Source of the DNA: an uncultured Bacteroidales bacterium
GTDB lineage: Bacteria > Bacteroidota > Bacteroidia > Bacteroidales > FEN-979
Assembly (NCBI GenBank): GCA_903913885.1
Contig: CAIWMX010000040.1
Span: 2,636-66,635, forward strand
Reading direction: 5' to 3'
DNA length: 64,000 bases
The translations under genes and the position numbers were made by a program. Within the stretch, counting starts at the first letter, position 1; each line of letters opens with the position of its first letter. Under the pieces are notes generated by a model. The model did no database searches, had not been told where the DNA came from, and was given only the letters and a program-made list of their open reading frames with translations. This document shows, piece by piece, positions 10,613 through 46,563 of the stretch.

Positions 10613-10724
10613 AGGTAGCGAAATGGTGAGGTAGCGAGGTAGCGAAATGGTGAAATGGCAAAATGGTAAAATGGTAAAATGGCAAAATGGTAAAATGGCA
10701 AAATGGTAAAATGGTAAAATGGGG
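10613..10724. repeat. 8-bp tandem array (gaggtagc units, then aaaatggt/aaaatggc units)
   Basis: Direct reading: aggtagcgaaatggtgaggtagcgaggtagcgaaatggtgaaatgg followed by about 9 alternating aaaatggc/aaaatggt units. Confidence 0.9.
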
Positions 10725-10738
10725 AAACATTTAGCCGC

Positions 10739-10772
10739 TTTTTAATTTTTAATTTTAAATTTTTAATTTTTC
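10739..10772. repeat. AT-only 7-bp tandem array (ttaattt/taatttt) overlapping the purL stop
   Basis: ttttaatttttaattttaaatttttaattttt. The last purL codons (..EKLKI*) are read from this array. Confidence 0.8.
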
Positions 10773-13700
10773 CCTGATCCATTCCCGGGCGTTTACGAAC
10801 GCAGTTATCCAGGGAGTTACTTCGTCGGAGTGACGTTCACCGGGATAGTGGGGCCATTGCCAGGGCAGGACGGAATCTTCGAGGTGGGGCATGATGGCGA
10901 GGTGGCGGCCGTCGGCGGATGCGATGCAGGCGGCGTCGAACTGGGAGCCATTGGGGTTGCCGGGATAGCCGTGGTAGCTGAATTTTGCCGGAATATGGTA
11001 GTTGTGTTCCTCGTCGGGGAAGTTGAATTTTCCCTCGCCATGGGCGACCCAGATACCCAGTTTTGAGCCTGCCAGCGATTTCAGCATCACCGAGTTGTTT
11101 TCCATCACGTCGAGGCCGACGAAGGTGCATTCATATTTGTGGGAGTCGTTCCACGACATCCAGGGGTGCTTTTGGTGTTCAGGATAGATCAGGCCGAGGG
11201 CGACCATCAGCTGGCAGCCGTTGCACACGCCCAGGCTGAGGGTATCGTCGCGTTTGTAGAAGTTGTCGAGCGCCAGCCTGGCCTTGTCATTGTAAAGGAA
11301 TGCACCGGCCCAGCCTTTGGCCGAACCCAGCACGTCGGAGTTGGAGAAACCGCCAACGAAGGCGATCATGTTGACATCTTCGAGGTTTTCGCGTCCGGCG
11401 ATCAGGTCGGTCATGTGTACGTCCTTCACGTCGAAACCTGCAAGGTATAGCGCCCATGCCATGTCACGGTCGCGGTTCACGCCTTTTTCACGGATGATGG
11501 CAGCTTTCACGCCCGAAGGTTTCCTGCGTTTTGGATTGGTTCCGAACTGTCCGAAAGTTCCTTGAAAATGATCCGGAAATAAAAATTTCAGCGGTTGCTG
11601 CCTGTAGTTATTGTACCGTTCCAGCGCCAGTTTCTCACCCGACTGTTTCCGGTCGAAGAGATAAGATGTTTTGAACCATGTATCGCGCAGGGCATCGATG
11701 TCGAATAGATATTCCTGTTCTGCGTATTTAATTTTGACAGACCGGTTTTTGGTTATTTTTCCGATTGGGAAAACATCAAAATCAATAAAATCCGATTTTT
11801 TATTTTTAACTTTAAAGTTTACCGGGATTTCGCTACCTCGCCACCTCGCTACTTCGCTAACTCTTACTTGTACCACCACTCCCGGCTTCTCGCTGAACAG
11901 CACCCTGACGGGGTCCCCCACCCTGTCAGGGTCCCCCACCCTGTCAGGGTCCCCCACCCTGTCAGGGTCTCCCACCCTGTCAGGGTCCCCCACCCTGACG
12001 GGGTCCAGGTTATCCAGTTCCAGTGCGAGCCCGGTACCCGGAGTCGAGAATGTCATCTCGAGCAGCGTGGTGATCAAGCCCCCGGCAGCCACATCATGGC
12101 CTGCCAGAATGGCGCCCCGGCTGACAAGGTCCTGGAGGAATTCAAAAACGGCGGCAAAATAAGAGGCATCGGCCACATCGGGCACCTGATCTCCCAGCTG
12201 GCTGATGGACTGGGCAAAACTACTTCCGCCCAACTCAAAATCACACGTTGAAAAAGGAATGTATACCAGTACAGAATCCTCGTCCGGCACAAGGCACGGA
12301 CTCACCACCTTCTTCACATCCGACACCTCGCCAACGGCAGAAATGATCACCGTTCCCGGCGAATAAACAATTTTCCCGTCAGGGTATTTCTGGGTCATCG
12401 ACAGCGAATCCTTCCCAGTGGGAATGTTGATCCCCAGGGCGATGGCAAAATCGCTCACTGACTTCACGGCAGTATACAACCGGGCGTCTTCCCCGGGGTT
12501 CCTACAGGGCCACATCCAGTTGGCGCTCAGCGAAACGCCAGACAGACCGTGGGTAAGCGGCGCCCAGACCAGGTTCGACAACGCCCTTGCAATGGATAAG
12601 CGTGAACCGGCCGCGGGATCGATCAACCCCGCTACAGGCGCATGTCCCAGGGAAGTGGCAATGCCCTTTAGCCCCTGGTAGTCGAGCGCCGTAACGCCCA
12701 CGTTGTTCAGCGGGAGCTGGATGGCGCCGCACGTCTGCTGTTTGGCGATCTTCCCGCTTACGGCCCGGTCGACTTTGTTGGTCAGCCAATCCTTGCAGGC
12801 AACGGCTTCGAGCTGGAGAATCTGGTCAAGGTATTCAGAGACAAGGGTTTGATCGTATGCGAGTGACAAGTGACATGTGACATGTGACAAGTCAACCATG
12901 ATGGTTTTAGGCGGTTTTCCGAAGAAGTCGGCCAGTTTAAGGTCGATGGGATGTACCCCTTCCTTGTGATCTTCGAACACCAGCTGGTGATCGCCGGTGG
13001 TTTTTCCGACAAGATACATGGGTGCCCGCTCCCGTTCGGCGATCCCGCGCATCAGCGCGACATCGACATCGGCCAGGATCAGCCCCATGCGCTCCTGCGA
13101 TTCATTGCTCACGATCTCCTTTGCCGACAAAGTCGGATCTCCGATGGGCAGGCTGTCGATGTTTATGGTCCCGCCGGTTGCTTCCACCAGCTCCGACAAG
13201 GCATTGAGATGGCCGCCGGCTCCGTGGTCGTGGATGGAGACAATGGGGTTCTGCTCCATCTCCGTCATAGCCCTGATGGCGTTGAACACCCGCTTCTGCA
13301 TCTCGGGATTGGACCGTTGCACCGCGTTGAGTTCGATGGCATTGGCAAATTCGCCGGTAGCCACCGACGAAACGGCGCCGCCGCCCATCCCGATGCGGTA
13401 GTTGTCGCCCCCCAGCACCACGATCTGCTGTCCGGCTGCAGGTTCTTCCTTCAGGCTGTCGTGTTGTTTGGCGAACCCGATGCCTCCTGCCTGCATGATC
13501 ACCTTGTCGTACCCGTAAACCCGGTCCCCGGCGGCATGTTCGAAGGTAAGCAGCGATCCGCAGATCAGCGCCTGGCCGAACTTGTTGCCGAAATCGCTGG
13601 CGCCGTTGGAGGCCTTGATCAGGATCTCCTCCGGGGTCTTGTAGAGCCAGGGACGCGCTTCGACGCTTTTTTCCCACGAACGGGCGCCTTCGGTACGCGG

Positions 13701-14612
13701 GTATGAGGTCATGTAAACGGCCGTGCCGGCCATGGGAATGCTCCCCTTCCCTCCTGCCATGCGGTCGCGGATCTCGCCGCCGCTGCCGGTGGCTGCCCCG
13801 TTGAAGGGTTCTACGGTGGTCGGGAAATTATGGGTTTCCGCCTTCAGCGAGATGACGGAGTGAATGTCGCTGATCACGAAATAATCGGCCACATCCTGGC
13901 GCACGGGTGCGAACTGCTCGATGTCGGGCCCGAGGATGAAGGCGACGTTGTCCTTGTATGCCGAGACCAGGAAATCGGGATGTTCTTTGGCCGTTTTTTT
14001 GATCATGGCAAAGAGCGAATCATCCATCTCCTTCCCGTCGATGATGAAAGTGCCGTTGAAGATCTTATGCCGGCAATGTTCCGAATTAACCTGCGAAAAG
14101 CCAAACACCTCGCTGTCGGTGAGCCCCCGGCCAAGCTTGTGGCTCAACCCGATGAGGTATTCAATCTCCTCCCCGCTCAGCGCCAGCCCCTGCTGACTGT
14201 TATATCCTGCAATATCCTCAATAAACTGCACCGGCTCCGGATCATGCAGAATATGAAAAATCTCCTGGTCCAGCACCTCATACACATGCTGCAGCATCGG
14301 GTCAAACGGCTGCCTGTCCCCCTCAATTGTAAATCCTAAATCGTCAATCGTAGATCGAAAATCGTAAATCGAAAATTCCTCAATCCTTTTAATCCCGCCG
14401 ATTCCCATATTCTGCGTAATCTCCACCGCATTCGTGCTCCATGGTGTGACCATTTCACGGCGCGGGCCGATAAAGGTTCCCTGTAAAACAGGTTCGGCGA
14501 TGCATACCGCCTCGCCGAACAACCAAACCAGTTTCTGAACATCCTGCCCGCTGAGCCCCTGGCTGCTTTCAACAGCATAGTAACTTTCGGGATTTTTGAA
14601 AAATGTTATCAT
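10755..14612 (-). CDS. purL: phosphoribosylformylglycinamidine synthase, single-chain large type
   Basis: 1285-aa ORF with the N-terminal PurS-like region, two AIR-synthase-like repeats (ETHNFPTTVEPFNGAATGSGGEIRD, DHGAGGHLNALSE) and a C-terminal class-I glutamine amidotransferase (GVCNGCQ, HGEG). Confidence 0.97.
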   Translation of the reverse strand: MITFFKNPESYYAVESSQGLSGQDVQKLVWLFGEAVCIAEPVLQGTFIGPRREMVTPWSTNAVEITQNMGIGGIKRIEEFSIYDFRSTIDDLGFTIEGDRQPFDPMLQHVYEVLDQEIFHILHDPEPVQFIEDIAGYNSQQGLALSGEEIEYLIGLSHKLGRGLTDSEVFGFSQVNSEHCRHKIFNGTFIIDGKEMDDSLFAMIKKTAKEHPDFLVSAYKDNVAFILGPDIEQFAPVRQDVADYFVISDIHSVISLKAETHNFPTTVEPFNGAATGSGGEIRDRMAGGKGSIPMAGTAVYMTSYPRTEGARSWEKSVEARPWLYKTPEEILIKASNGASDFGNKFGQALICGSLLTFEHAAGDRVYGYDKVIMQAGGIGFAKQHDSLKEEPAAGQQIVVLGGDNYRIGMGGGAVSSVATGEFANAIELNAVQRSNPEMQKRVFNAIRAMTEMEQNPIVSIHDHGAGGHLNALSELVEATGGTINIDSLPIGDPTLSAKEIVSNESQERMGLILADVDVALMRGIAERERAPMYLVGKTTGDHQLVFEDHKEGVHPIDLKLADFFGKPPKTIMVDLSHVTCHLSLAYDQTLVSEYLDQILQLEAVACKDWLTNKVDRAVSGKIAKQQTCGAIQLPLNNVGVTALDYQGLKGIATSLGHAPVAGLIDPAAGSRLSIARALSNLVWAPLTHGLSGVSLSANWMWPCRNPGEDARLYTAVKSVSDFAIALGINIPTGKDSLSMTQKYPDGKIVYSPGTVIISAVGEVSDVKKVVSPCLVPDEDSVLVYIPFSTCDFELGGSSFAQSISQLGDQVPDVADASYFAAVFEFLQDLVSRGAILAGHDVAAGGLITTLLEMTFSTPGTGLALELDNLDPVRVGDPDRVGDPDRVGDPDRVGDPDRVGDPVRVLFSEKPGVVVQVRVSEVARWRGSEIPVNFKVKNKKSDFIDFDVFPIGKITKNRSVKIKYAEQEYLFDIDALRDTWFKTSYLFDRKQSGEKLALERYNNYRQQPLKFLFPDHFQGTFGQFGTNPKRRKPSGVKAAIIREKGVNRDRDMAWALYLAGFDVKDVHMTDLIAGRENLEDVNMIAFVGGFSNSDVLGSAKGWAGAFLYNDKARLALDNFYKRDDTLSLGVCNGCQLMVALGLIYPEHQKHPWMSWNDSHKYECTFVGLDVMENNSVMLKSLAGSKLGIWVAHGEGKFNFPDEEHNYHIPAKFSYHGYPGNPNGSQFDAACIASADGRHLAIMPHLEDSVLPWQWPHYPGERHSDEVTPWITAFVNAREWIREKLKI
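11831..11864. repeat. 8-bp tandem array inside the purL coding sequence
   Basis: cgctacctcg ccacctcg ctacttcg ctaactc, translated in purL as ..VSEVARWRGSE... It shares 15 nt (11827-11841) with the reverse complement of 10634-10648. Confidence 0.8.
11902..12006. repeat. 18-bp tandem array (approx 5.8 units) inside the purL coding sequence
   Basis: accctgtcagggtccccc repeated. Read in purL as DPVRVG-(DPDRVG)x4-DPVRV. Confidence 0.95.
12863..12891. repeat. 7-bp tandem array (gtgacaa/gtgacat x4) inside the purL coding sequence
   Basis: gtgacaagtgacatgtgacatgtgacaag, read in purL as ..LSHVTCHLSLA.. Confidence 0.8.
14330..14378. repeat. degenerate 7-bp tandem array (taaatcg-like x7) inside the purL 5' coding region
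   Basis: taaatcc taaatcg tcaatcg tagatcg aaaatcg taaatcg aaaattc, read in purL as ..YDFRSTIDDLGFT.. Confidence 0.7.
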
Positions 14613-14699
14613 AAGTTAACGGTCAAAGGTCTGAAAAAAGGAAAAAAGGCAATACGCAACAGACATTAGGCATTAGTCAGAAACTAAAAAGGTGCCCCT

Positions 14700-14766
14700 C
14701 ATTGTCTGCATTGTTTGCATTGTCTGCATTGTCTGCATTGTCTGCATTGCTTGCATTGTTTGCATT
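14700..14766. repeat. 9-bp tandem array (cattgtctg/cattgtttg, 7 units) between the trxB stop and the purL start
   Basis: Direct reading. Two unit variants alternate. The array ends 7 nt from the trxB stop codon. Confidence 0.92.
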
Positions 14767-14772
14767 CATTTA

Positions 14773-15708
14773 TCAGGCACCGAGAAACCTTTCAGCTTCG
14801 ATAGCTGCCATGCAGCCGGTACCGGCCGCGGTCACTGCCTGGCGGTAATGGTGGTCCTGCACGTCGCCGCACGCGAACACCCCGTCGATGCTGGTCTGGG
14901 TGGTGCCCGGTTTGGTTTTGATGTATGCCTGGTCGTCGAGTTCCACCTGTCCGGTGAAGATATCGGTGTTGGGTTTGTGGCCGATGGCGACAAAAAAGCC
15001 CATGAGTGCAAGGTCGCGCGCTTCTCCCGTCTTCACGTTGCGCACGCGCAGGCCGGTCACCCCGCTTTCATCGCCGAGCACCTCTTCAGGGGCGCTGTCC
15101 CAAATCATCTCGATATTTGGGGTGTTGAGCACCTTGTGCTGCATCGCCTTGGAGGCGCGCAGTTCACTGCGGCGGTGCACCATGTAAACCTTCCTGCAGA
15201 GCTTGGCAAGGTAGGTAGCCTCCTCGGCTGCCGTATCCCCACCGCCCACGATGGCCACATCCTGCCCGCGGTAAAAGAAGCCGTCGCACGTGGCGCATCC
15301 CGAAACGCCCATGCCCATGAATTTCTTCTCCGATTCGAGTCCCAGCCATTTGGCTGAGGCGCCGGTGGCGATGATCACCGATTCGGCGACGATGGTCCTT
15401 CCATCGTCGGCTTTGGCCGTGAACGGGCGTTTGGAGAAGTCGACCTCTGTCACCACGCCGCCGCGCACCTGGGTGCCAAACCGTTCAGCCTGTTCCTTAA
15501 ACTCTTCCATCATCTCAGGGCCGGTGATCCCTTTCGGGTAACCCGGGAAGTTCTCCACCTCGGTGGTGATGGTAAGTTGTCCGCCGGGCTGCATGCCCTG
15601 GTACATCACCGGTTTGAGGTCGGCCCTGGCAGCATAGATGGCAGCCGTATAACCCGCCGGGCCTGAGCCAATGATCAGGCAGCGGGCGGTTTCTGTATTT
15701 TCGCTCAT
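14773..15708 (-). CDS. trxB: thioredoxin-disulfide reductase
   Basis: 311 aa. FAD motif IIGSGPAGYTAA, redox-active CATCDG, NADPH motif VGGGDTAAEEA. Confidence 0.97.
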   Translation of the reverse strand: MSENTETARCLIIGSGPAGYTAAIYAARADLKPVMYQGMQPGGQLTITTEVENFPGYPKGITGPEMMEEFKEQAERFGTQVRGGVVTEVDFSKRPFTAKADDGRTIVAESVIIATGASAKWLGLESEKKFMGMGVSGCATCDGFFYRGQDVAIVGGGDTAAEEATYLAKLCRKVYMVHRRSELRASKAMQHKVLNTPNIEMIWDSAPEEVLGDESGVTGLRVRNVKTGEARDLALMGFFVAIGHKPNTDIFTGQVELDDQAYIKTKPGTTQTSIDGVFACGDVQDHHYRQAVTAAGTGCMAAIEAERFLGA

Positions 15709-15725
15709 AAAATAGTTTTATGCCA

Positions 15726-15733
15726 CAAAATTA
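15726..15733 (-). promoter_or_regulatory. Bacteroidetes-type -7 box for trxB
   Basis: The plus strand reads caaaatta, the reverse complement of TAATTTTG. It lies 18 nt upstream of the trxB ATG. Confidence 0.4.
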
Positions 15734-15791
15734 GGCAAAAAAAGGGAACCGGGCACCTTTGCCTCACCGGTTAAAGAATCTATTCACCGAT

Positions 15792-15824
15792 TTGTTGCAA
15801 AGATGAAAAAATTGCTTAAATTTG
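15792..15824 (+). promoter_or_regulatory. putative promoter of tRNA-Pro (-33 TTG / -7 TAnnTTTG)
   Basis: tttgttg at 15791-15797 and taaatttg at 15817-15824, with spacing of about 19 nt. The tRNA starts 35 nt downstream. Confidence 0.45.
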
Positions 15825-15858
15825 CAGCCTCAAACCGGAGAACGTTCCGGTGATCAAT

Positions 15859-15932
15859 CGGGGTGTGGCGCAGTTGGCTAGCGTACTTGCATGGGGTGCA
15901 AGGGGTCGGAAGTTCGAGTCTTCTCACCCCGA
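15859..15932 (+). tRNA. tRNA-Pro (anticodon GGG), CCA not encoded
   Basis: Hand-folded cloverleaf. Acceptor CGGGGTG/CACCCCG, D stem GCGC/GCGT, anticodon stem CTTGC/GCAAG with loop AT-GGG-GT (U33, G37). 5-nt variable loop, T arm GGAAG-TTCGAGT-CTTCT, discriminator A. 74 nt in total. Confidence 0.9.
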
Positions 15933-15941
15933 CTTGAAAAT

Positions 15942-15981
15942 AAACCACTTACAGAGATAACATCAAGTAAGTGGTTTTTTA
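15942..15981 (+). terminator. rho-independent terminator after tRNA-Pro
   Basis: Stem ccacttac (15945-15952) / gtaagtgg (15967-15974) followed by tttttt. Confidence 0.7.
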
Positions 15982-16064
15982 TTTGCATACAACTTCAATA
16001 TAACTTTTACCCTTTGATTTAACAGTAAGGAATTTTAGTATCGCCTTTCAAAGGTAAGCTCCGG

Positions 16065-16322
16065 CTACGAGCATCTTGCGCGCTTGATCAGGTTGTGCCA
16101 GTCGTGGAGTTGAAATCGATAATCAGTGTAGGAAAAAATGCCGAGTCCCTTGTTTGGATTGTCTCCGTAACATAAGATATCTGTGAGTTTTGGATCAAGC
16201 AGCCCGAATTTAAGTCGTTCAGGACATTCACACTCTTGGATGATGGCAATGTCAGGTTCAATCGCAAGACGGTGTGCCTTGCGGCGGAACGCCATGTTAC
16301 AGTTCCAGGTGATAAGCTTCAT
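16065..16322 (-). pseudogene. truncated endonuclease/exonuclease/phosphatase (EEP) family gene fragment
   Basis: The 85-aa ORF starts MKLITWNCNMAFRRKAHRLAIEPDIAIIQECE, the typical EEP N-terminus with catalytic N and E. It ends after about 75 conserved residues, whereas full-length family members are several-fold longer. Confidence 0.6.
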
Positions 16323-16404
16323 GCTTGCAGAAAATACAGCTAACTGTGTACGGATAAATAATAATCCAATGAATTAATGAGGGTATTATGACTGACATCC
16401 GACT

Positions 16405-17259
16405 TTAATCGATGTTCTTTAAAACCTTGTCAACATTTGTTATAAACGAAACCAAATATTTTGATATCATTTCTTGATCTGGTTGGGCAATATTCTGGAT
16501 GTCTTGACTTAATAATGGTGTTTTTAAAGTACCCCAAAGACTGTCATCGTATCTACCCCTGCCATCAACTAACTCTAACTTCGATTCAACTGCATGAGTT
16601 AATGCGTCAATATTTTGACTCAAATACTCATATTGTTTCCTCGTTATAAGACAAGTTAACCTTAAAAAATTTGATTTGCTGTTCCATATAAAACAGTCAT
16701 AATTAAGCTTAGGGGTTCTGAACACCACTTTCCCCTCCGCCCTTGAGAAATATATCTTTGCAGCTAATATGTCCCCAATCTCGGCACAGACAGTATCCTG
16801 CCATTTGACGTTGTTCTTAATGGGGGTAACGGTTTCACCTTTTGTGGGCTTGGTTTTATTAGGTTCTAAATACCGTTCATAATATTGCATCACATCAGCA
16901 TACTCTTCCTGGCTTTCGGTTTGGTAAGCAATGTCCAACGATTGACTATCAGAAGAATAGAGCAGATTCATTGAAGAAACTATCGCATAACGCTCATTGA
17001 TGTAAAGTTTTGTATGTAAGCCAGTTACCAAAACTGGATTATACCCTAATGATTTGACTTGCTCTAATGTGGTTTTCTGATCGGCTCGAATATAAAAATC
17101 CACAGGAATCTTCCGCTCCTTGAGATTATTAAAGCACTTTTGGATTTTCTTCCAGTTCGTGAAATCACAGTAAGGGGACACGATGATGACAAATTTATCT
17201 GCCTCATCTATCAATGTCATAATATCCCCAGAAATCTGGTTCGGCTTGATTAGCTTCAT
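16405..17259 (-). CDS. phospholipase D-family (Nuc/HKD) nuclease with uncharacterised C-terminal domain
   Basis: Single HKD-type motif HTKLYINERYAIVSSMN about 95 aa from the N-terminus, then about 170 aa with no recognisable motif. Start set at the ATG for MKLIKPNQ (17259) rather than the ORF-track start 17298. Confidence 0.7.
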   Translation of the reverse strand: MKLIKPNQISGDIMTLIDEADKFVIIVSPYCDFTNWKKIQKCFNNLKERKIPVDFYIRADQKTTLEQVKSLGYNPVLVTGLHTKLYINERYAIVSSMNLLYSSDSQSLDIAYQTESQEEYADVMQYYERYLEPNKTKPTKGETVTPIKNNVKWQDTVCAEIGDILAAKIYFSRAEGKVVFRTPKLNYDCFIWNSKSNFLRLTCLITRKQYEYLSQNIDALTHAVESKLELVDGRGRYDDSLWGTLKTPLLSQDIQNIAQPDQEMISKYLVSFITNVDKVLKNID

Positions 17260-17566
17260 AAAATAGGAACGGATAAAAGATTTTGTCAAAGGTATCAATA
17301 ACCTGAAAACCTTTGTGGAAATTACCGCCAGCTTCAGGAATCAATAATACTCCATACCGGGAATGTCTCAAAGCTGCTGTCCTTGATTGGACCGGAATAA
17401 TCAATGAAGGCATTTAATACCATACTAAACTTTGATATCTTTACACTGCCCTCAAAATGACTAAACTATTTCATACATGAGCTGCCAAAAATGAGTAAAA
17501 GAGAGACAAGCGTGAACATTGGAATACGCAAAACAAAAGTATTTATTACTGATAAAGTATATTAGT

Positions 17567-20203
17567 ATGCAGACACAATTTCAATATATCACTGATCTTG
17601 CCAGGCAATACAAGGAATATTCAGACCATCAGGATATTTTGTACCAGGCCGTTAATAACTTGCCGCAAAACATCATTGAAGATGTATTTAAGGAATACGG
17701 TGATCCGGAACGGGATTTTAAACCGGTTAACCTTGTGCGGGCGGAAGTTGCCCGCAGACTATTGCAAGGTGAGCCTGTTACTGAAGCACTTGTAAATGAA
17801 ATCAAAGAAAAAATAAGGATAAAGGACACTGCTTTTTTTAGCCATTACAATGAAAATTATCTTAAACAACTTACAGAATATGAGTTGTTTAAAAGGGATT
17901 TGTTTGCCAACTGGCAAAAACCATGGAGTATATTTCATACGTTTTTCTACAGGCTTGCATGGGGAAAGGAAAAAGAAACTGTTCAAACCTACCTGGAACA
18001 AATTGCCAGGGACCTATTGGTTCAACTTGATTTAAAGGATTACACGTTTCACAAAGTTGATTTCCAGGGGGCATCTAACTTCGGTAGTAGTCATTGCTGG
18101 ATCGCGTTATATCCCGTGACAAAAGAATCACATAAAGATAGTTATCAGTTTTTCCTAATGTTAAGTGCTGACCCGGAAGCAGGCATGGTTGCTGGTTTTT
18201 CGATCCGGGAGCCAAAGCCGAATAAATTAAAGAAAGTAAATTCTTATAATGAGTCACTGGAATATTTGAAAGAGCTAAAACATGAAATTGTCCAGCTGAA
18301 TAAGGAAAGCAGGAGCTATTTCAAGTTTGCCCCAGGCAGTCAGGCAAGCGAATGGAGGAAATTTCATGAGGAAGGTATTGCGGCAATAAGTTATAACAAT
18401 GTAAATCTGCAGGATCTAACACCCTTCAAATCACGAGAAGAAATAAATATTGCAGCCGGGTTGGAACCAGACAATTGGTCCAACAATACCTGGAACCTTT
18501 GGCTTTTTAAAAATGCCAATATTGGCGATGTGATTTTTGCCACAAAGGGGGTCAATACTTCCATTGGCATTGGAATCATCGAAGGCGGATACTATTATGA
18601 CGCATCAGAGAATGATTATCAGCACCGGCGGAAGATAAACTGGATAACCGATAAAGTATACCAGTATAAATCTGACACGTTAAAGACTTACAAAACACTG
18701 TTCCGGCCAGATACATTCAGTCCAACCAAGGTATGGGAATTTTTGCTTGGAGAATATGTCCGGTTATTCCCTGAGCTGGCTGACTTGTTTGAGAAACACA
18801 ACCTGAAATTCAAAACAACCTCGGCTGTGACCTCTACTGTTAATGAACCTGAAGAGGCATCAGATCCGGAAGCGGAAGAAAAAGAACCATTAAATTTCTG
18901 GTGGCTGAATGCCAATCCGAAAATCTGGCGAATCAGCGATAATAGCGAAGGGCAATGCCAATCCTATACAACACACAATGAAAAGGGGAATAAGCGCAGA
19001 ATCTATAAACACTTTGAAGAAGCCAGGCCGGGAGACCTGATCATCGGGTATGAAAGCACACCAACCAAGCAGATCAAAGCAATTTACGAAGTTACCAAAG
19101 GGATACATTTAGCAGAAGAAGGAGAAGAGATAGAATTTCAGTTAGTTGAAAAGCTTGAAATTCCAGTTCATTGGAACGACTTGAAAAACAATCCGGCCCT
19201 TCAGGACTGCGAGGTCTTTATTAACAATCAGGGGAGTCTTTTTAAACTCACCGAGCCGGAGTTTGATATCATTCGTGAGATTATTGATAACAAGAATATC
19301 ATCACCGAAATACTGTTGCAAAAAAGCAATATCAGGCAATACCGGTTTGCTGAAGATGCGGACAAACCCTTTATCAGCGAAACTGACTTTCTCCAAACCG
19401 TTGCACTCCTCAAACGGAAAAAGAACATTATCCTTCAGGGCCCGCCGGGGGTGGGGAAGACCTTCATTGCCCGTAAAATTGCCTATGAGATAATGCAGGA
19501 GGTGAACGACGTAAACATTGAGATGGTACAGTTTCACCAATCATACAGCTACGAAGATTTTATCCAGGGATTGCGTCCCACTCAAAAAGGGGGTTTTGAG
19601 CTGAAAGACGGCATCTTTTATTCATTTTGTCAGAAAGCCCTGGCACACCCTGATCGGCCATTCTTTTTTATCATTGATGAAATAAACAGGGGTAATCTAA
19701 GTAAGATTTTTGGGGAGTTGATGATGTTGATGGAGGCTGATAAGCGGCAGGAAAAATTTGCCCTGAAACTGACCTATGCAGAGGATGAAGAGGATCGTTT
19801 TTATGTGCCGGAAAACCTTTACATCATCGGCACCATGAACACGGCCGACCGTTCCCTGGCCATTGTGGACTATGCCCTTCGGCGTCGGTTCTCCTTCGTA
19901 ACCCTTCAACCAGACTATGGGGAAAATTTTCGTTCGTTCCTTACATCCAGGGGGCTTTCTGAAGCTATGACAGAACATATTTGTGCCTCCATCAGGAACG
20001 TTAACAACAAAATAAAGGATGATCCGAATCTTGGCGATGGGTTTCAGATTGGACACAGCTATTTTTGCACCTTCAAAACCGGAGAAGATGAACGAATATG
20101 GTGGAACGAAATTCTTGGGTTTGAGCTGAAACCCCTGCTGGAGGAAATTTGGTTTGATGACGCGAAAAGCGTTGATGAGACCTTCAACTTACTCTCCAGG
20201 TAG
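17567..20203 (+). CDS. mcrB: McrB-family AAA+ GTPase restriction subunit with extended multi-domain N-terminus
   Basis: The C-terminal 270 aa carry Walker A LQGPPGVGKTF, FFFIIDEINRGNLSKIFGELMMLME and IIGTMNTADRSLAIVDYALRRRFSF. From memory these are near-identical to E. coli McrB signature blocks. An ATG at 17567 is preferred over the TTG at 17519. Confidence 0.92.
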   Translation: MQTQFQYITDLARQYKEYSDHQDILYQAVNNLPQNIIEDVFKEYGDPERDFKPVNLVRAEVARRLLQGEPVTEALVNEIKEKIRIKDTAFFSHYNENYLKQLTEYELFKRDLFANWQKPWSIFHTFFYRLAWGKEKETVQTYLEQIARDLLVQLDLKDYTFHKVDFQGASNFGSSHCWIALYPVTKESHKDSYQFFLMLSADPEAGMVAGFSIREPKPNKLKKVNSYNESLEYLKELKHEIVQLNKESRSYFKFAPGSQASEWRKFHEEGIAAISYNNVNLQDLTPFKSREEINIAAGLEPDNWSNNTWNLWLFKNANIGDVIFATKGVNTSIGIGIIEGGYYYDASENDYQHRRKINWITDKVYQYKSDTLKTYKTLFRPDTFSPTKVWEFLLGEYVRLFPELADLFEKHNLKFKTTSAVTSTVNEPEEASDPEAEEKEPLNFWWLNANPKIWRISDNSEGQCQSYTTHNEKGNKRRIYKHFEEARPGDLIIGYESTPTKQIKAIYEVTKGIHLAEEGEEIEFQLVEKLEIPVHWNDLKNNPALQDCEVFINNQGSLFKLTEPEFDIIREIIDNKNIITEILLQKSNIRQYRFAEDADKPFISETDFLQTVALLKRKKNIILQGPPGVGKTFIARKIAYEIMQEVNDVNIEMVQFHQSYSYEDFIQGLRPTQKGGFELKDGIFYSFCQKALAHPDRPFFFIIDEINRGNLSKIFGELMMLMEADKRQEKFALKLTYAEDEEDRFYVPENLYIIGTMNTADRSLAIVDYALRRRFSFVTLQPDYGENFRSFLTSRGLSEAMTEHICASIRNVNNKIKDDPNLGDGFQIGHSYFCTFKTGEDERIWWNEILGFELKPLLEEIWFDDAKSVDETFNLLSR

Positions 20204-20206
20204 ACC

Positions 20207-21238: not shown

Positions 21239-21798
21239 ATCGTTGATAAGCATTATAGTAAATGATATTTTGCTGTTACCAATTAACCTGAAACCGTCTC
21301 AATCAGTTAAATTTTCATTTAATAAGATTTTATATGTTATGGTATAGTTCCATTTAACCATAATGAAAAATGTTTAACGACCACTATAATCTGTTTTGAC
21401 GTGTTATGTTTTTTATGAATTTGGATATAATGAAGTTTTAATAGTTGGACGATGGCCTTATCCTTCAGAATCAATAGATGCTCTTTCTTCACCATAACTA
21501 TGATTCAGAAATTATTATATTTTTACGAAGTATTTAGTGCCATACCAGGAAGTGACTTAAATTTGATTTTTCTGAAAGAAAAAAAACTTCCACAAGAAAC
21601 TTAGGAAATCGAGGACCATAGGATAAATTCAATTACTGGATTCTGGTTTTTGAAAATTGAACTGTATAGTTAAAAGACAATAAGATCAGTTCTTAAAGGT
21701 CAAAAAATAATTGTAAAAATTCGCTCTTCTGGAGTTGGTATCCAAAAGGCAATCGATTTTTTATACAAAAAAAATCGCAACCAATTTGATAAGAAACT

Positions 21799-22572: not shown

Positions 22573-22694
22573 TTCAGTAATTAAACATAATCCTATTTAA
22601 CCACTTATTAGAACCGTTTGATTGAAATATTGTAAAAGCCGACCTTTTTATCGCCCCGTAAGCATTAATTGAAGTTATTGCTATAGAAAGTTGC

Positions 22695-22702
22695 TATTTT
22701 TG
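22695..22702 (+). promoter_or_regulatory. Bacteroidetes-type -7 box
   Basis: tatttttg lies 14 nt upstream of the ATG at 22716. Confidence 0.4.
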
Positions 22703-31499: not shown

Positions 31500-32808
31500 A
31501 ATGGTTGTTGAATATTTCCTGGTAACGGGTGGTGTGTTGGTCGATATCGGCTTCGGTCAGTCCAAAATCTGCCAGCGCGTAATGGTGCATCCCGTTTTTA
31601 CGGTGCGGGTGTTCCAGTTCATGCTGCCTGAATTTTTCAGCCAGTTCCGGCGTCATGCCCCCGTTCTGCTTATAGATCAGGGATAACGCATCTACGGAAT
31701 CGCTGAGAAGGTCCTTGTAAAAGATATCGGTAAACCTGGACTCATTCCCGTCCTTCAACCGGTATTCCAGCGCCTGTTCAAGCATGTAGCCCGTTTTGCG
31801 CACCCAGTGTGCGGCAACCTGCCGCTCGTCGACCTCGTTGCTGAAGATCCTCCGGTTGCAGGTAACCATGCTCAGGAACGATGGCACCGATTCATACAGG
31901 CTCCGGTGGGGCCACACGAAATGCACCTCCCCAAAGTTTTTTTCTATCAAACCCGGGAATTCGAGATGGTGCGGGGTTTTCAGGATCCACCGTTTGGCCG
32001 GTTTTATCCACTGAAGGAATTTCAGCAGCTTCGCGGCGTAGGCATAGGCGGGCGACTGGTCGGTGTTTTCGAGCCACGACGAATAGGAAGGCACATGCAT
32101 CATGGCTTCCGGCGTGGTGCTCAGGAAGCTGACGTCGAGCATGAGGATGTCCTCTTCCGGCTGCATGGCGTCGATGGGATGGATCGCAAAAAACCCGGGC
32201 GACATGAGTTTCAGGGCCTTCACGGAGATGCTGGCGACGGAGGGGCGTTTGTCGCGGGGGTGGGGGTATGGTTGTTGTAAATGGTGATCGGGTGACAGGG
32301 TGATAGGGTGACAGGGTGACAGGTCATACAGGTCCAGGTTCATCGGCATGGGGTTGATCACCTCCCAACTGGGGATGACGCGGTGGTCGGGGTCGACGGC
32401 AAGCAGGCGCTGGAGCTTGGTGGTGCCGGTTCGCTGCAGCCCGACGATGATCCAGGCGGGGCAAAGCTCCTGCTCAAGGATCTCCGGGTGCTTTTTGAAG
32501 AAATACTCGGCCCGGAGCCGGATACCGAGCAGACTGACAAACCGTTCGCCTGTGATGAACCGCCCGATCGGATGTAGATTCGCCTCCTCATTCACGGCTT
32601 GTAACAGTCTGTCGAGCGGCTCATCCATGAAATCCTTCCCCAGGTCAGTCAGCCCGGTGCTCTTCCTGGCTGCGCGAATCAGTCCGTCTTTGTCCAGGCT
32701 GATGCGTGTGCCTGCGGCATAGGTTCCCTGCCAGATGCGGTTGATCGCGCTGAACCATGCCGGGCTTTGGCTGAATTGCTTAATGGTGGTGGGGTTAGAG
32801 GAGGTCAT
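31489..32808 (-). CDS. sulfotransferase family protein
   Basis: 5'-PSB-like loop IVGLQRTGTTKLQRLL; 439 aa. Contains an in-frame microsatellite-derived insert. Confidence 0.75.
   Translation of the reverse strand: MTSSNPTTIKQFSQSPAWFSAINRIWQGTYAAGTRISLDKDGLIRAARKSTGLTDLGKDFMDEPLDRLLQAVNEEANLHPIGRFITGERFVSLLGIRLRAEYFFKKHPEILEQELCPAWIIVGLQRTGTTKLQRLLAVDPDHRVIPSWEVINPMPMNLDLYDLSPCHPITLSPDHHLQQPYPHPRDKRPSVASISVKALKLMSPGFFAIHPIDAMQPEEDILMLDVSFLSTTPEAMMHVPSYSSWLENTDQSPAYAYAAKLLKFLQWIKPAKRWILKTPHHLEFPGLIEKNFGEVHFVWPHRSLYESVPSFLSMVTCNRRIFSNEVDERQVAAHWVRKTGYMLEQALEYRLKDGNESRFTDIFYKDLLSDSVDALSLIYKQNGGMTPELAEKFRQHELEHPHRKNGMHHYALADFGLTEADIDQHTTRYQEIFNNHYGR
32283..32322. repeat. 8-bp tandem array (ggtgacag-like x5) inside the sulfotransferase coding sequence
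   Basis: ggtgatcg ggtgacag ggtgatag ggtgacag ggtgacag, read in the gene as ..DLSPCHPITLSPDHH.. Confidence 0.85.
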
Positions 32809-32836
32809 CGGGGGTTATGGGGTTTGGTGGGCGGGT

Positions 32837-32908
32837 GGACAGGCGGACAGGCGGACAGGTGGACAGGCGGACAGGCGGACAGGTGGACAGGCGGACAGGT
32901 GGACATGG
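32837..32908. repeat. 8-bp tandem array (ggacaggc/ggacaggt, 9 units), intergenic
   Basis: Direct reading. The last-base unit pattern is C C T C C T C T, then a degenerate unit. Confidence 0.92.
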
Positions 32909-32930
32909 GCACAGATGAACAGAAATTAGT

Positions 32931-32961
32931 AATTTTTAATTTTTAATTTTTAATTTTTAAT
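32931..32961. repeat. AT-only 7-bp tandem array (aattttt x4) abutting a stop codon
   Basis: aatttttaatttttaatttttaatttttaa ends at the stop of the 32961-34139 gene. Confidence 0.85.
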
Positions 32962-34139
32962 TATTTCTCCTCCCTTTTCACTTCGCAACAAGGCTCGACT
33001 ACTGCCCTGTCCCCTGCTTTGATCCTGTACCACCTCCACAACATGGTGCCTTCGTTGTGGCCGCAGGTGTTGATCCAATTAGGTGTTCCCGGGTCGGTGT
33101 GGGCGACGACGACCTTTACGGAGCCGTCGGGTTCATATATGGCAGTGGCTTTATTGATGCAGATGGTGAAATAACGGTAATCGAGCGATTCCATCCAGTA
33201 GTTGTTGAGCTGGAAGTTCCATGAATCGCAGTCAGGCGGTTTAACCGTGATCACGAGCGATTCATTGTCCGCCAGTTTCCAGTAACTGTGGTAATAAATA
33301 ATGCTGGCATCGCCCCCTGCCGCATTTGACACCTCAGGGTCAAACAGGGGGAGTTTGTTGGTATGTTTCTGAAATCCGTTGGCCCACCTGGCAAAGAGTA
33401 AAGAAGCCCCTGCCACGAACATCGACGCGGTTTTCAGTCCTTCGTCGATCATGGCAGGCGTTATAGGTTCGGGTGCTGTGCGGCCATCGAGGTTTTCAAT
33501 AGTGATTTCCGACGGTGTCTCAGTAAAACGGTCCAGGAAGGTCTGTCGAACCATCACCATCGAGGTTGCTGGTTCAGTTTTCAGCCAGTTTTTGCCGGTG
33601 GGCGTGGGGCCCAGGATAATCTCAAAGCTGCCGTCATCGTCAATGACCAGGTCGGTGTGTTCAAGCACGCCACAGGGCGACATTCCCCCGGTGGTGCCAT
33701 AATTGCCGTTTTGAGTAAAAAACCCTATGTAGTGCACCGAATTCCGTTTCCCGCGGATGCGATAGCTGTATTTCCCGCTGATCTGGGCATTGAAGTAATA
33801 GTTGTCAGGGTTATCTGCCCCCATTTTCACTGTTTCATGAGCCAGCCGGCGCAATACCGGGAATGCCGGGTCGCAGTACTCCACGAATGCCTCCAGTCCG
33901 CCGCGCGTGAGCCGGGTGAGGTAACGCAGCCCTTCGGCCTGGTTGAAAGCGTCCCGCGGTGTGCCCGGGTACATGAGCGAGGCGCCGGCCGATTTCAGGT
34001 TATCGCAAAATTCATCCCATGATTTACCGATTACCACGCGCTGCGCATGGATGTCGTCTTCCGTTTTCCCCCGGAGTTTTAAACCGAATTGACGGAAGGC
34101 CTTCAGCATGCCCAAAAAGAGAAACAAGAGCTTTCTCAT
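32961..34139 (-). CDS. hypothetical protein, DUF1214-like (assignment tentative)
   Basis: 392-aa ORF. Blocks such as GADNPDNYYF, GKNWLKT and PNWINTCGHNEGTMLWRW resemble DUF1214-type proteins as I remember them. No catalytic motif recognised. Confidence 0.5.
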   Translation of the reverse strand: MRKLLFLFLGMLKAFRQFGLKLRGKTEDDIHAQRVVIGKSWDEFCDNLKSAGASLMYPGTPRDAFNQAEGLRYLTRLTRGGLEAFVEYCDPAFPVLRRLAHETVKMGADNPDNYYFNAQISGKYSYRIRGKRNSVHYIGFFTQNGNYGTTGGMSPCGVLEHTDLVIDDDGSFEIILGPTPTGKNWLKTEPATSMVMVRQTFLDRFTETPSEITIENLDGRTAPEPITPAMIDEGLKTASMFVAGASLLFARWANGFQKHTNKLPLFDPEVSNAAGGDASIIYYHSYWKLADNESLVITVKPPDCDSWNFQLNNYWMESLDYRYFTICINKATAIYEPDGSVKVVVAHTDPGTPNWINTCGHNEGTMLWRWYRIKAGDRAVVEPCCEVKREEK

Positions 34140-34992: not shown

Positions 34993-35010
34993 ATTTACCA
35001 GATAATTTCG

Positions 35011-35018
35011 TATATTTG
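35011..35018 (+). promoter_or_regulatory. Bacteroidetes-type -7 box
   Basis: tatatttg lies 28 nt upstream of the ATG at 35046. Confidence 0.4.
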
Positions 35019-35045
35019 TGGGGAATATCAGGTTATAAACACAAT

Positions 35046-36422: not shown

Positions 36423-36547
36423 CCTGTCGGTCAACAGGCTGATTAGCCCATGTCTGACTGAAAAAACCCTTGACTTTCCTGCCCCGGTTCCTTATCTTTA
36501 CTATGTTTTTCATTCCTTCCTTATTCACAAATAAAACCATATCCATC

Positions 36548-37993: not shown

Positions 37994-38026
37994 AAAAAAT
38001 GAATATTGAATATGGAACATTCTGGA

Positions 38027-38072
38027 ACCCCTCCCGCCCCTCCCCTTGAAGGGGAGGGTCAGGGGAGAGGTC
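38027..38072. repeat. single copy of the GC-rich hairpin repeat family seen at 24405-24725
   Basis: cccctccccttgaaggggagggtcaggggagaggtc. It has the same hairpin plus tcagggg..gagg tail architecture and sits between two convergent genes. Confidence 0.7.
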
Positions 38073-38132
38073 ATTTACTGCCAGCGACCTTCATTTAAAC
38101 TTCAAAATTCGTTGCTCAATATTCGATATTCA

Positions 38133-39479: not shown

Positions 39480-39487
39480 ACGCTTAT

Positions 39488-41749: not shown

Positions 41750-41866
41750 AATAAAATTATATTTAACGTAGACTAAATGAGATTTTTAGAAGTTTAGATG
41801 TAAATGCTATTATTGGAAATAACGTGTTAAATTTATGAAAAATTTCATCCCCAAACCAATTTTACA

Positions 41867-44800: not shown

Positions 44801-46462
44801 CAACGTGTTACCAAAATATTCCAATCCACGACGTTCCTGAAGGAGAGTATCATCCTCACCTTCAGCGAACCCGATTTCAAGCTCAGCGACGTGCCGGATA
44901 AAGGGATCTGGATATTACGATTGCTGGCTTTCAAGGAGTTCAAGCATTACAGGCTGTCCATCAATACGAATGCAGGCAAGCATTTTGACCTGCATATGGT
45001 GATGAGCGAAAACCCGCAATTCAAGCCAAATCCCGACACTTTCTACTGGCTGGCCTCCCTTGCCGGGTTCCCATACGGCCCCGCCGTCGCGCCGATCCTG
45101 GGCAGCAGCAGGCCAAACCTTGGCGTGCTTACCACGCAATACATCGGCGGGTTATCAGCCTGGGACAAGATCCGTGAATTATCTGAAATTCATCGTTCTT
45201 CGGGATATGTCGGTGGCAATGCCTGGAAAAAAATATTTATCAGGTCGTTTGCGGTCACCTTTAAAGCCTGGCACCACAGCGGGCGCCAGATTGTGCCGGG
45301 AGCGATATCGCCTGCCAACGTAGCCATCCCGGAGATGGATTTCAAGGGAAGCGCAGTCGTTTTGTCGCTGGCCGGGTGGTCGGTGTACAAAAACACCCTC
45401 TCCCTGGTTTATCCCATGGTGCAGGATTATTATGCCAAAATATCCTCGATCTACCCACTGTGCCATAAGCTGCTTGATATCAACTGGATCTTCGACGCAT
45501 GCATCGAAGCGCTCGGAAAGGAAGAAGCCACGCTGTTCCTGGAGCAGTTGCAGCATGACCTGAAAGCAAAGCCGGTAACCTGCTTTGATGCGACGGATCT
45601 CCAGGCGCACCTCGACCATTACCTGGCTGTGACCATCAAACGATATTACCTGCCAGTTTCACTCTACAGCGCCGTCGACCAATTTCAGGACTGGTACAAG
45701 ATCAACCCGCTTACCACGGCTGCAGCCAAGGAACAAACACTCATCGAACTGATGGAATTGTACAAGATCCACCAGTACGCAGAACTGGCCCGGTACTTCT
45801 TTTACCGGCACACCTACTTTGCAGATGCCGCGGAGGAGATTCACGAAGCCTTCGACCGGCTGCTTGAGAAAATGGAAGGAAATCCCGACGGGCTAGCCAT
45901 CCAGCTGGTTGAACTCTCAGACCTGCAATCAGCCTTGCACGATAACGACGACCGCAACATCTTCAGCAGGATGGTGTTTCCCAGGTTACAGGGGGAACAG
46001 GGGATCGATTTCATGAAAATCGGTGAAAACAGGAAAGAGCATCTCGTGGTAAGGTTCCCCATCCAGGATAAATCGGGCAGGCACTACATCCTGCGCGAGC
46101 CGATCGAAGCCCGCGAAACCGGGCAGCTCTACCAGCTTTTCTTCCGTGAAAACTATCCCAAGGACATTTCAGACCATGATCATCAGTATGTACTGACCGA
46201 TGAAAACGAAAAGATCGTCGGCGGAATCACCTTCAGGCACATTGAAGATCACAACATTTTACTCGACGGGATCGTGGTAACCTCCTCACTCCAGGGCAAT
46301 GGCATTGCATCCGGGATGATCGAAAAATTCTTTGCCAGCATGGCGGCCCGGGGTGCGGAGTTCGTAAAAGCACATTTCCTGTTCGGCAATTATTACCTGA
46401 AACATTTCTTTGAAGTGGACAAGAAATGGGGGGCGTTGATCAAAACCCTGAAAAAGTTGTAA
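41867..46462 (+). CDS. 1531-aa multidomain protein: N-terminal AMP-dependent synthetase/ligase, approx 750-aa unknown middle region, C-terminal GNAT acetyltransferase
   Basis: AMP-binding motifs MFTSGSTGLPKGVSFS, GFGMTEATGG, LSTGDVF..DGYFEIVDRVKD within about aa 90-640. GNAT motif A LQGNGIASGMIEKF within the last approx 130 aa. One uninterrupted ORF. Confidence 0.8.
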   Translation: MPQLESLLEEWKIVKKKDKSSHLQALKIIETTEKIFASGIEGTVRNSFWFEFLDLTRKSLFLSALDTPVERSRWADVVFRIIQHTNYDLRDLMEQRVAEHPNHILFKDMSSAVAIDWTYDQIYRHLREIASLFYKSVATAPRVAIYNENCLEGACTDLACLMFDIYDTPLSPHFKADILLPIFNELKINIALADTDERLSVLLKIREQAEIKFIIFSLQPVNAKTRDVRYLVEESKKISRWDMDVILARQPVRINNQVATTMFTSGSTGLPKGVSFSIYNIVSKRFARAAAVPEAGDEVFLCYLPLFHTFGRYLELTGSIFWSGTYIFAGNTSSETLRSLFPKMHPTGFISIPLRWQELYEHCQEVISNVESQELREQAVRDVVGSRLHWGLSAAGYLDPAVFRFFNQYGIHLNSGFGMTEATGGITMTPPGKYKEFSVGVPLPGVQTRLTPDSELEISGHYIGAYLETAAPGEVIPYPVSPAADRWLSTGDVFKQAADGYFEIVDRVKDIYKNNRGQTVAPQVIEKKFNKVPGIKNVFLVGDNRPYNVLLIVPDHTDPLFNSLEAQNLSEYYHQIVMAANTDVAPYERVINFTVLDRDFSPEKGELTPKNSYNRKAIETNFKEVVETLYQSNSINIAAKDFSIIIPKWFFRDLGILETDIRYERQQLVNRRNGSKLSFSRLKGNWYRIGHLKYHIESNQIDLGTLTRQPKIWIGNPALIAFCPVKEGWDLSMGAFSSSISIAGFRQLDEKAFPVIKTIRDQQLIQANYLLFRTYFRGFEEAYKATDELGKILISAEPRLAIAIRHRLEALATHPEEEIRCLAYRLILLKAPKPEEIQFMPTFIESGLSFLNENSIREIASGNFGKHRLDALKQRLYWYRTHLSWPASKRHRRAFEDVLGLLYNFAVLHLEYYVPVRAELSRWILHREDPYLSKKAEAYFYKLAAVFEKEIDSKSTRSTISDWKSKLVFEHGISDLEKQRVTKIFQSTTFLKESIILTFSEPDFKLSDVPDKGIWILRLLAFKEFKHYRLSINTNAGKHFDLHMVMSENPQFKPNPDTFYWLASLAGFPYGPAVAPILGSSRPNLGVLTTQYIGGLSAWDKIRELSEIHRSSGYVGGNAWKKIFIRSFAVTFKAWHHSGRQIVPGAISPANVAIPEMDFKGSAVVLSLAGWSVYKNTLSLVYPMVQDYYAKISSIYPLCHKLLDINWIFDACIEALGKEEATLFLEQLQHDLKAKPVTCFDATDLQAHLDHYLAVTIKRYYLPVSLYSAVDQFQDWYKINPLTTAAAKEQTLIELMELYKIHQYAELARYFFYRHTYFADAAEEIHEAFDRLLEKMEGNPDGLAIQLVELSDLQSALHDNDDRNIFSRMVFPRLQGEQGIDFMKIGENRKEHLVVRFPIQDKSGRHYILREPIEARETGQLYQLFFRENYPKDISDHDHQYVLTDENEKIVGGITFRHIEDHNILLDGIVVTSSLQGNGIASGMIEKFFASMAARGAEFVKAHFLFGNYYLKHFFEVDKKWGALIKTLKKL

Positions 46463-46479
46463 TTTTGCGCAGGGATTAC

Positions 46480-46563
46480 GAAGGACGAAGGACGAAGGAT
46501 GTGGGACGTGGGACGAAGGATGAAGGACGAAGGACGTGGGACGAAGGACGTGGGACGTGGGGA
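46480..46563. repeat. 7-bp tandem array (gaaggac/gtgggac, 12 units) between the large fusion gene and icd
   Basis: Direct reading. Two unit types are interleaved (A A A' B B A' A A B A B B'). Confidence 0.92.

Follow-up and report, generated by a model that had tools for sequence, protein, structure and literature searches.

Arrays of 7- to 9-bp tandem repeats in the spacers and enzyme loops of an uncultured Bacteroidales bacterium

Tandem arrays with units of seven to nine base pairs are frequent in a 64,000-nucleotide (nt) stretch of DNA from an uncultured Bacteroidales bacterium (GenBank assembly GCA_903913885.1, contig CAIWMX010000040.1, positions 2,636 to 66,635 of the forward strand), hereafter the window. 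Heterocystous cyanobacteria carry repeats known as STRR (short, tandemly repeated and repetitive), which are tandem heptamers of ~7 bp that form several unit families per genome, including CCCCAGT, TTGGTCA and CAACAGT, and that are mostly intergenic; Vioque is said to have described STRR inside an RNase P RNA gene in 1997. The window arrays resemble STRR in having tandem units of ~7 bp, with a heptamer period in five of the 11 arrays, in several families, in lying mostly between genes and in being tolerated in the variable parts of functional genes. They differ in their host phylum, Bacteroidota, and in units that are unlike those just named, and also in that units of 8 and 9 bp are just as frequent as heptamers, that arrays lie in frame in protein loops and that copy-number change between strains is seen directly. 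The phase-variable contingency loci of Haemophilus and Neisseria are simple sequence repeats of 1-5 nt in surface and virulence genes that switch these genes on and off. Like them, the window arrays are hypermutable repeats in or just before genes, with unit lengths that are not a multiple of three, but the genes concerned have housekeeping functions and only frame-preserving alleles were seen, in a sample biased to intact open reading frames (ORFs). On the evidence of these alleles we did not assign them to contingency loci, in which a change of repeat number moves the gene into or out of frame or alters promoter spacing.

Long simple sequence repeats (LSSR) were surveyed by Mrazek 2007, and in the account of that survey given in PMC4679880 they have units of 5-11 nt, with heptamers most common, are over-represented in particular lineages and were proposed to arise by slippage. 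The same account lists Burkholderia, cyanobacteria, Actinobacteria and Xanthomonas as the top genomes and states that coding regions seldom contain units whose length is not divisible by three (PMC4679880). The window shares the unit lengths of LSSR, their excess, their whole-unit variation between strains and their over-representation in a lineage, the last with 10-21 arrays per 64 kb in the window and in purL-centred loci of close relatives versus 1.5 in those of 76 other Bacteroidia, and with repeat-encoded loops throughout the clade in two unrelated proteins. It differs in that units that are not a multiple of three are frequent in the enzyme loops of the clade. MacGregor 2015 found TAACTGA and other heptamer arrays in five Bacteroidetes, including Paludibacter and Flexibacter (PMC4679880), so that a partial equivalent exists in the phylum for which the sequence-only reading, an earlier interpretation made from the letters of the window, knew of none. 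TAACTGA arrays occur in Beggiatoaceae, cyanobacteria and Bacteroidetes with a single dominant unit and orientation, were read as a regulator binding site, and have relatives of the same gene order without repeats (PMC4679880). The window likewise has heptamer arrays just before start codons, and both systems have a sporadic phylogenetic distribution that includes Bacteroidetes; in contrast, the window holds many units in both orientations, and TAACTGA is the unit of none of its arrays called by Tandem Repeats Finder (TRF). Rehm 2015 described the GGGNATC G-quadruplex heptamers of Xanthomonas and Nostoc, which lie between aligned ORFs in variable unit number (PMC4692102) and either overlap a stop codon or are no more than ~50 bp away from a start or stop codon (PMC4692102). 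Window arrays also lie in the spacers of aligned ORFs, near starts and stops or over a stop, with variable unit number, but most of their units lack G-tracts (TAATTTT, AAATGGTA, CATTGTCTG, TACGATT) and there is no bias toward four units.

We conclude that the window arrays belong to a known class and are the same kind of repeat as LSSR, STRR, the Xanthomonas/Nostoc heptamers and the TAACTGA repeats. What is new is the clade that hosts them, the equal standing of units of 8 and 9 bp, hypervariability seen directly at the strain level, and the presence throughout the clade of non-triplet repeats that have colonised enzyme loops and are read in all three frames. With a probability of roughly two in three, we read the arrays as long simple sequence repeats that resemble variable-number tandem repeats, with units of 7-9 bp and one 18-bp derivative, that change by slippage-type events and accumulate in unconstrained DNA.

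Arrays were called by TRF at a score of at least 50, and their sequences were checked by eye and by aligning the repeats in register. The window holds the following 11 arrays.

10613-10722: composite 8-bp array of ~14 units, GGTAGCGA/AATGGTGA grading into AAATGGTA/AAATGGCA, in the purL to SDR spacer; it stops 15 nt before the start codon of SDR (10597), both genes being on the minus strand
10739-10771: TAATTTT, 4.7 copies, over the purL stop codon, encoding the C-terminal ...EKLKI and the stop
11830-11863, minus strand: 8-bp unit TCGCTACC, 4.2 copies, in frame in purL at the synthetase/glutaminase junction, encoding SEVARWRGSEI
11901-12006, minus strand: 18-bp unit, 5.9 copies, in frame in purL, where it encodes (DPDRVG)n; a palindrome within the unit reads ACCCTG-T-CAGGGT
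12862-12892, minus strand: 7-bp unit AGTGACA (sense TGTCACT), 4.4 copies, in frame in purL at the AIRS_C/PurM_N-like boundary; the unit is read in all three frames, giving SHVTCHLSL
14325-14376, minus strand: 7-bp unit AATCGTA (sense TACGATT), 7.4 copies, in frame in purL in a variable loop inside the Pfam N-terminal-domain match, encoding IYDFRSTIDDLGFTI
14700-14766: 9-bp units CATTGTCTG/CATTGTTTG, 7.4 copies, in the trxB-like to purL spacer, 88 nt before the purL start
32283-32323, minus strand: 8-bp unit GGGTGACA, 4-5 copies, in frame in a hypervariable loop of the sulfotransferase gene, encoding LSPCHPITLSPDHH
32810-32913: 8-bp units GGACAGGC/GGACAGGT, 29 nt before the sulfotransferase start; a core at 32834-32905 (8.6 copies, 24-nt higher-order period) is flanked at both ends by decayed copies
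32930-32962: TAATTTT, 4.7 copies, over the stop codon of the DUF1214 gene
46478-46561: 7-bp mix of GGACGAA and GGACGTG, ~12 units with a 28-nt higher-order period, in the spacer from the AMP-binding/GNAT gene to icd, 67 nt before the icd start

When the window was simulated fifty times with a Markov-1 model, 0.36 arrays reached the same score on average, and never more than 2. As a control of real DNA we used 1.31 Mb of purL neighbourhoods from 76 other Bacteroidia, counting arrays of period 6-10 with at least three copies; the window holds 10 of these per 64 kb versus 1.5 per 64 kb in the control loci, a ~7-fold excess. The sequence-only reading had named six intergenic and five coding arrays and judged their density far above what a bacterial chromosome should show. 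The density stands against both comparisons, the intergenic arrays were recovered by TRF within a few bases, and the coding arrays lie in purL (four) and the sulfotransferase gene (one) as listed. Periods are 7, 8 and 9 with 4-14 copies, plus the one 18-bp array; five of the 11 have a heptamer period, the remainder periods of 8, 9 or 18 nt. Several arrays also have higher-order TRF periods of 16, 24 and 28 nt, which together with the decayed edge copies fit block-wise duplication.

The six intergenic arrays occupy four spacers, each between co-directional genes, and the five coding arrays are all in frame in loops or linkers. Neighbouring genes encode the SDR, PurL, a thioredoxin-reductase-like flavoprotein, the sulfotransferase, a DUF1214 protein, an AMP-binding/GNAT protein and isocitrate dehydrogenase. 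As to a positional bias, which the sequence-only reading had suggested looking for, all four array spacers are co-directional, but compared with 13 of the 20 spacers of at least 50 nt this is no significant excess (hypergeometric p ~0.15). On the minus strand, the array at 14700-14766 places seven in-phase ATG codons at the head of a short ORF, MQAMQTMQTMQTMQTMQTMRGTFLVSD followed by a stop, just before purL; the ORF is probably incidental, or an upstream ORF if it is transcribed.

Copy-number change was observed between near-identical strains. Same-species contigs from several lake metagenomes were retrieved by exact matches to the sulfotransferase, SDR and icd proteins. Contig L599 aligns to the window over 21.3 kb with 1 single-nucleotide polymorphism (SNP) and carries 40 additional nt in 32834-32905, corresponding to 14 octamers versus 9 in the window. 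Contigs L606 and L607 align over 12.7 kb with 0 SNPs and have one extra purL 18-mer; the same +18 nt in array 11901-12006 is present in L610, the three contigs differing from the window by 0-3 SNPs. Contig L618, which is ~0.9% divergent (65 SNPs over 7.3 kb), lacks 42 nt before icd, having 6 heptamers versus 12 in the window. All indels longer than 3 nt between the window and the same-species contigs are whole-unit changes within these three arrays, so the gain and loss of units outpaces point mutation, and the expansion and contraction that had been supposed from the window alone, together with the strain polymorphism that the sequence-only reading had proposed to check, are seen directly. 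One further contig has another spacer length before icd, judged by gene coordinates only, and a 190-nt spacer before icd in L614 proved to be a scaffold gap in place of the array. The purL to SDR spacer arrays are identical in 7 same-species contigs, array 32930-32962 is invariant among strains, and the 7- and 8-bp coding arrays are invariant in the strain sample.

Contig ends or gaps of Ns fall frequently inside arrays (L602, L603, L608, L614, L621), which could be taken to mean that the arrays are artefacts of assembly or sequencing. We give this next to no credence: identical arrays come from independent samples and assemblers, the reading frames of purL and the sulfotransferase gene are intact, and orthologous arrays occur in other species. 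The window arrays are real on the same grounds, and the doubt about assembly that had been attached to the sequence-only reading is settled in their favour. The breaks and gaps fit length heterogeneity within samples, and they account for some truncated gene calls.

We next consider the arrays inside enzymes. The window PurL is a single chain of 1285 aa, where ~1227-1230 aa is typical, and its arrays occupy an indel-rich loop of the N-terminal domain, the AIRS_C/PurM_N-like junction and the synthetase/glutaminase junction. Because the unit is 7 or 8 bp long, it is read in all three frames and yields peptide repeats of 7 or 8 residues. Among 120 PurL homologues, most clade members have repeat-encoded peptides after 'RIEEF', including IYDLRFT, NYELRIT, KYEVRST, VTRHASR, SAVGSQQ, IVNRKSS, EIRNPKS and MQDAGCK. 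In the loop that holds array 14325-14376, peptides encoded by heptamers are likewise present in most of the clade. Three peptides at one PurL site come from related units, IYDLRFT from (ATTTACG)3, NYELRIT from (AATTACG)3 and KYEVRST from (AAGTACG)3. A single-base change of the unit in all copies alters three residues together, indicating that the evolving unit is the DNA repeat and not the peptide. The evolution of array units is thus concerted and takes place in the DNA. The loop of the sulfotransferase behaves likewise: minimal homologues have 38 aa there and others up to 93 aa, with periodic inserts of 8 residues. Homologues of both proteins across the clade carry repeat-encoded peptides.

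Within clusters of PurL at 90% identity, in-frame copy variants at 96-99.9% identity are common, for example (SAVGSQQ)1, 2, 3 and 6 and, in cluster 8, an array related to (DPDRVG)n of the window that is polymorphic by two DPVRVV units in either direction. The site-1 insert of P0200 is wholly different at 96% identity. No frameshifted OFF alleles of purL were found among the truncated ORFs examined, in sampling that favours intact ORFs. Four candidates were rejected. In P0157 (L621), the one case read at the DNA level, the array is interrupted by the Ns of a scaffold gap; P0178 and P0181 begin right after the site-1 array on short contigs and are likely contig or gap artefacts; and the break in P0188 lies 40 residues beyond site 2, outside the array. 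Two other irregularities were noted in purL. In L003, at ~7345-7351, the frame changes near residue 1119, outside any array, probably through assembly error or because the gene is a pseudogene. In L053, from a Paludibacteraceae metagenome-assembled genome (MAG), the purL match at 10001-14766 spans 4766 nt versus ~3680, and the insertion of ~1 kb may be an intein, a mobile element or a misassembly.

The closest genomes to the window are uncultured lake and sediment Bacteroidales/Bacteroidota MAGs with PurL identities of 66-78%; no exact match to the window PurL is on record, the best homologue being 78% identical. These relatives keep the trxB-like/purL/SDR gene order. The purL-centred loci of L037, L002 and L003 hold 14-21 arrays per 64 kb, which is 10-14-fold over other Bacteroidia, so the STRR-like repeats are a style of the lineage and no local oddity, as the sequence-only reading had suspected. 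An octamer array in the purL to SDR spacer is common only to the window and L082, where the unit is CATTTTAC. The window, L037 and L003 have in common an AAAATTA array at the purL stop; L037 has GCGAAATG in 4.8 copies at the site orthologous to 11830-11863, and GTCAC-type heptamers occupy the site of 12862-12892 in L037, L003, L082 and L083. The trxB-like to purL spacer is 161 nt long in the window and no more than ~73 nt in most relatives, down to 18-21 nt, which indicates that the 9-mer array at 14700-14766 is a lineage-specific gain. Other units were gained in this spacer in L088, L084 and L621, and orthologous spacers in relatives have either no arrays or different units. In L083, the spacer between purL and SDR that holds arrays in the window contains a gene (13828-17649) for a 1273-aa restriction-modification protein of the MmeI/Eco57I type.

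Our favoured explanation can be set out as a series of steps. Slipped-strand mispairing or unequal exchange would give birth to arrays and change their lengths by whole units or blocks of units. We infer that repair or removal is inefficient in this lineage, so that arrays would build up wherever the sequence is unconstrained, that is, in co-directional spacers, last codons, surface loops and interdomain linkers. Within genes, purifying selection would leave only total lengths that keep the frame. The same slippage or conversion would carry point changes in a unit along its array and, on occasion, into neighbouring arrays in that genome. The arrays would be neutral in that no dedicated function is needed, and any effects on the expression of downstream genes would be possible side-effects.

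Several observations weigh against this explanation. Units are reused more than random seeding predicts, and some unit families (GTCAC.., ..TACG, CCTGTC, GCGA) turn up at several sites and in several species. Slippage alone, acting in place on arbitrary seeds, would not explain this without conversion, template switching or sequence preference. The loci of the relatives were centred on purL, itself a hot spot, so their densities are biased upward. Since the purL to SDR arrays are invariant in 7 contigs, not every array is demonstrably unstable. Finally, arrays lie 15-88 nt before start codons and may make a regulatory contribution.

The reuse of units was quantified. Sixteen of 77 same-period array pairs within one genome have units that differ by at most one base, with rotation and strand allowed, compared with a mean of 2.07 and a maximum of 7 in 500 letter shuffles of the units. 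In L085, GATGCAG-type heptamers occupy three sites of purL as well as the spacer downstream and have both orientations, CGTCACG is reused in L003, L083 and L084, and AATTCAA is reused in L088. Within the window, TAATTTT is used twice, 22 kb apart and each time at a stop codon beside an octamer array; the GGTAGCGA octamer forms two short inverted arrays 1.2 kb apart (10613-10645 and 11830-11863) that bracket the part of purL for the glutaminase domain; and a GACAGG/CCTGTC core is present in three arrays (11901, 32290, 32837). The statement that each array has its own unit is correct as to the diversity of the units, but not for these three cases.

It is possible that such reuse reflects an active, sequence-family-specific process that makes or spreads arrays, by ectopic conversion, template switching, nick-primed synthesis or RNA-templated addition, with each genome holding its own preferred units that colonise new sites. 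Sharing within genomes is indeed far above chance, the two TAATTTT arrays occupy like positions, and heptamers encode the PurL linker even where this linker is just as long as in outgroups. We nonetheless regard such a process as unlikely. Most pairs that share units lie within a few kb of each other, where conversion between neighbours or template switching could suffice; the window units are diverse, with seven or more families; and no candidate enzyme was identified. A search of public contigs also bears on the question. Four copies of GTCACNN were found in at least 120 contigs from metagenomes, with a G+C content of 38-68%, and likewise in at least 120 viral ones, and control cores were almost as common in viral contigs (GCTAC 61, GACTC 116, ACCTG 102). 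Heptamer arrays are thus widespread in public contigs, and with the GTCAC counts being lower bounds, no special role of this core can be claimed.

A bolder version of this idea, which we consider quite improbable, is that the clade has an active process that copies genome-specific families of 7-8 bp units between arrays and seeds new permissive sites, and that the resulting arrays serve as evolvable expression-tuning spacers and enzyme linkers. Such copying may come about by template switching or ectopic conversion, or through an activity devoted to it, be it nicking, polymerase or reverse transcriptase. If true, the arrays would be unstructured, rapidly evolvable spacers that tune expression in a phylum without Shine-Dalgarno-led initiation, and also evolvable linkers of multidomain enzymes.

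The intergenic arrays could instead be cis-regulatory or post-transcriptional elements that tune downstream genes, with copy number as a tuning knob or contingency switch. Arrays do lie 15, 29, 67 and 88 nt before the SDR, sulfotransferase, icd and purL starts, and two of these arrays differ in unit number from strain to strain. A sequence right upstream of the icd array, TAATTTTG, matches what we take to be the consensus of the Bacteroidetes -7 promoter box, and 198 of 200 shuffles have more structure than the CCUGUCC leader. The TAACTGA (PMC4679880) and GGGNATC (PMC4692102) heptamers have comparable positions, and comparable proposals have been made for them. Against this, the orthologous spacers of relatives are as short as 18-21 nt (most no more than ~73 nt) and have no arrays or unrelated units, the same unit families lie inside coding loops, where such a role is implausible, and the strand and composition of the units relative to the gene are inconsistent. 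The neighbouring genes have unrelated housekeeping functions, and no frameshifted OFF alleles were seen, the truncated ORFs examined being scaffold gaps or breaks outside arrays. We thus judge a regulatory role improbable.

Searches for associated signals in the window gave little. An Rfam scan matched only a tRNA at 15859-15932, and folding of four array spacers against shuffles showed no excess of structure (z = -0.35, -0.11, +2.07 and +1.07, two of them folding worse). No evidence was found here for an RNA that recognises the arrays, nor for a protein that does so, which the sequence-only reading had supposed could exist. No terminator-like hairpins were present in the trxB-purL-SDR spacers. 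A promoter or terminator role was rejected, since a sigma-70 and terminator scan, which did not model Bacteroidetes promoters, gave no more hits than shuffles and none in array spacers. A G3N5 quadruplex motif lies on the plus strand of the GGGTGACA octamers at 32290-32316, antisense to the gene. Four tracts of at least three Gs with short loops occur only there and at the decayed edge 32810-32835, with none in the other nine arrays, and G-quadruplexes were therefore rejected as a general explanation.

Several hairpin-forming sequences were noted in addition. The intergenic window segment 24424-24712 has a 47-nt unit in 2.8 copies plus an inverted partial copy, distinct from the 7-9 bp arrays, with a hairpin core of CCCCTCTCC...GGAGAGGGG and CCCCCTCTCCG..CGGAGAGGGGG followed by GTCAGGGGGGTGAGG. 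In L002, purL has in-frame insertions of this core at two sites (peptides ...PSPQGEGS.. and ..PSPEGEGR..), similar G-rich inserts occur in L001, and 'LPSPxGEGSGVG' inserts are found in many PurL and spacer sequences of the clade. This looks like an element of the repetitive extragenic palindromic (REP) or miniature inverted-repeat transposable element (MITE) type that also tolerates in-frame insertion. In five high-GC soil contigs (L095, L110, L116, L121, L130), GTGAC- and GTCAC-type heptamer arrays form inverted pairs 35-60 nt apart; in L110 (1275-1349), L116 and L121 a stop triplet, in whichever frame, is found no more than ~12 nt from the pair, which forms long hairpins with stems of tandem heptamers.

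These hairpins, and the sharing of purL sites between the element and the arrays, would fit a view of the arrays as remnants or parts of miniature mobile elements, not generated locally. We think this very improbable. At the window arrays we found no terminal inverted repeats, target duplications or conserved flanks; the array spacers contain no inverted arms other than an A/T palindrome near icd, and flanks are unrelated between arrays. Whole units change in place between strains, and unit sequences differ from array to array. Assignment of the arrays to MITE or REP elements, which have defined ends and place the same module at multiple sites, was accordingly rejected. Elsewhere in the window, a 3232-aa ORF on the minus strand (49118-58816) has many PKD-type repeats by Pfam labels, and a PorP/SprF gene comes after it; its product is probably a cargo of type IX secretion and has no relation to the arrays.

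The arrays have practical consequences. They break short-read assemblies, cause spurious gene truncations in MAGs and inflate apparent protein divergence, and they could serve as high-resolution strain markers for these uncultured populations, in the manner of multiple-locus variable-number tandem repeat analysis. Non-triplet repeats can occupy essential enzymes, where they are read in three frames in the permissive loops of PurL and the sulfotransferase, and the peptide sequence of these loops is set by concerted evolution of the DNA and not by selection on the protein. With many related MAGs and multiple strains in public data, the clade is a tractable system for repeats of the heptamer class, and it could shed light on what makes tandem repeats of 7-9 bp thrive in certain lineages of bacteria.

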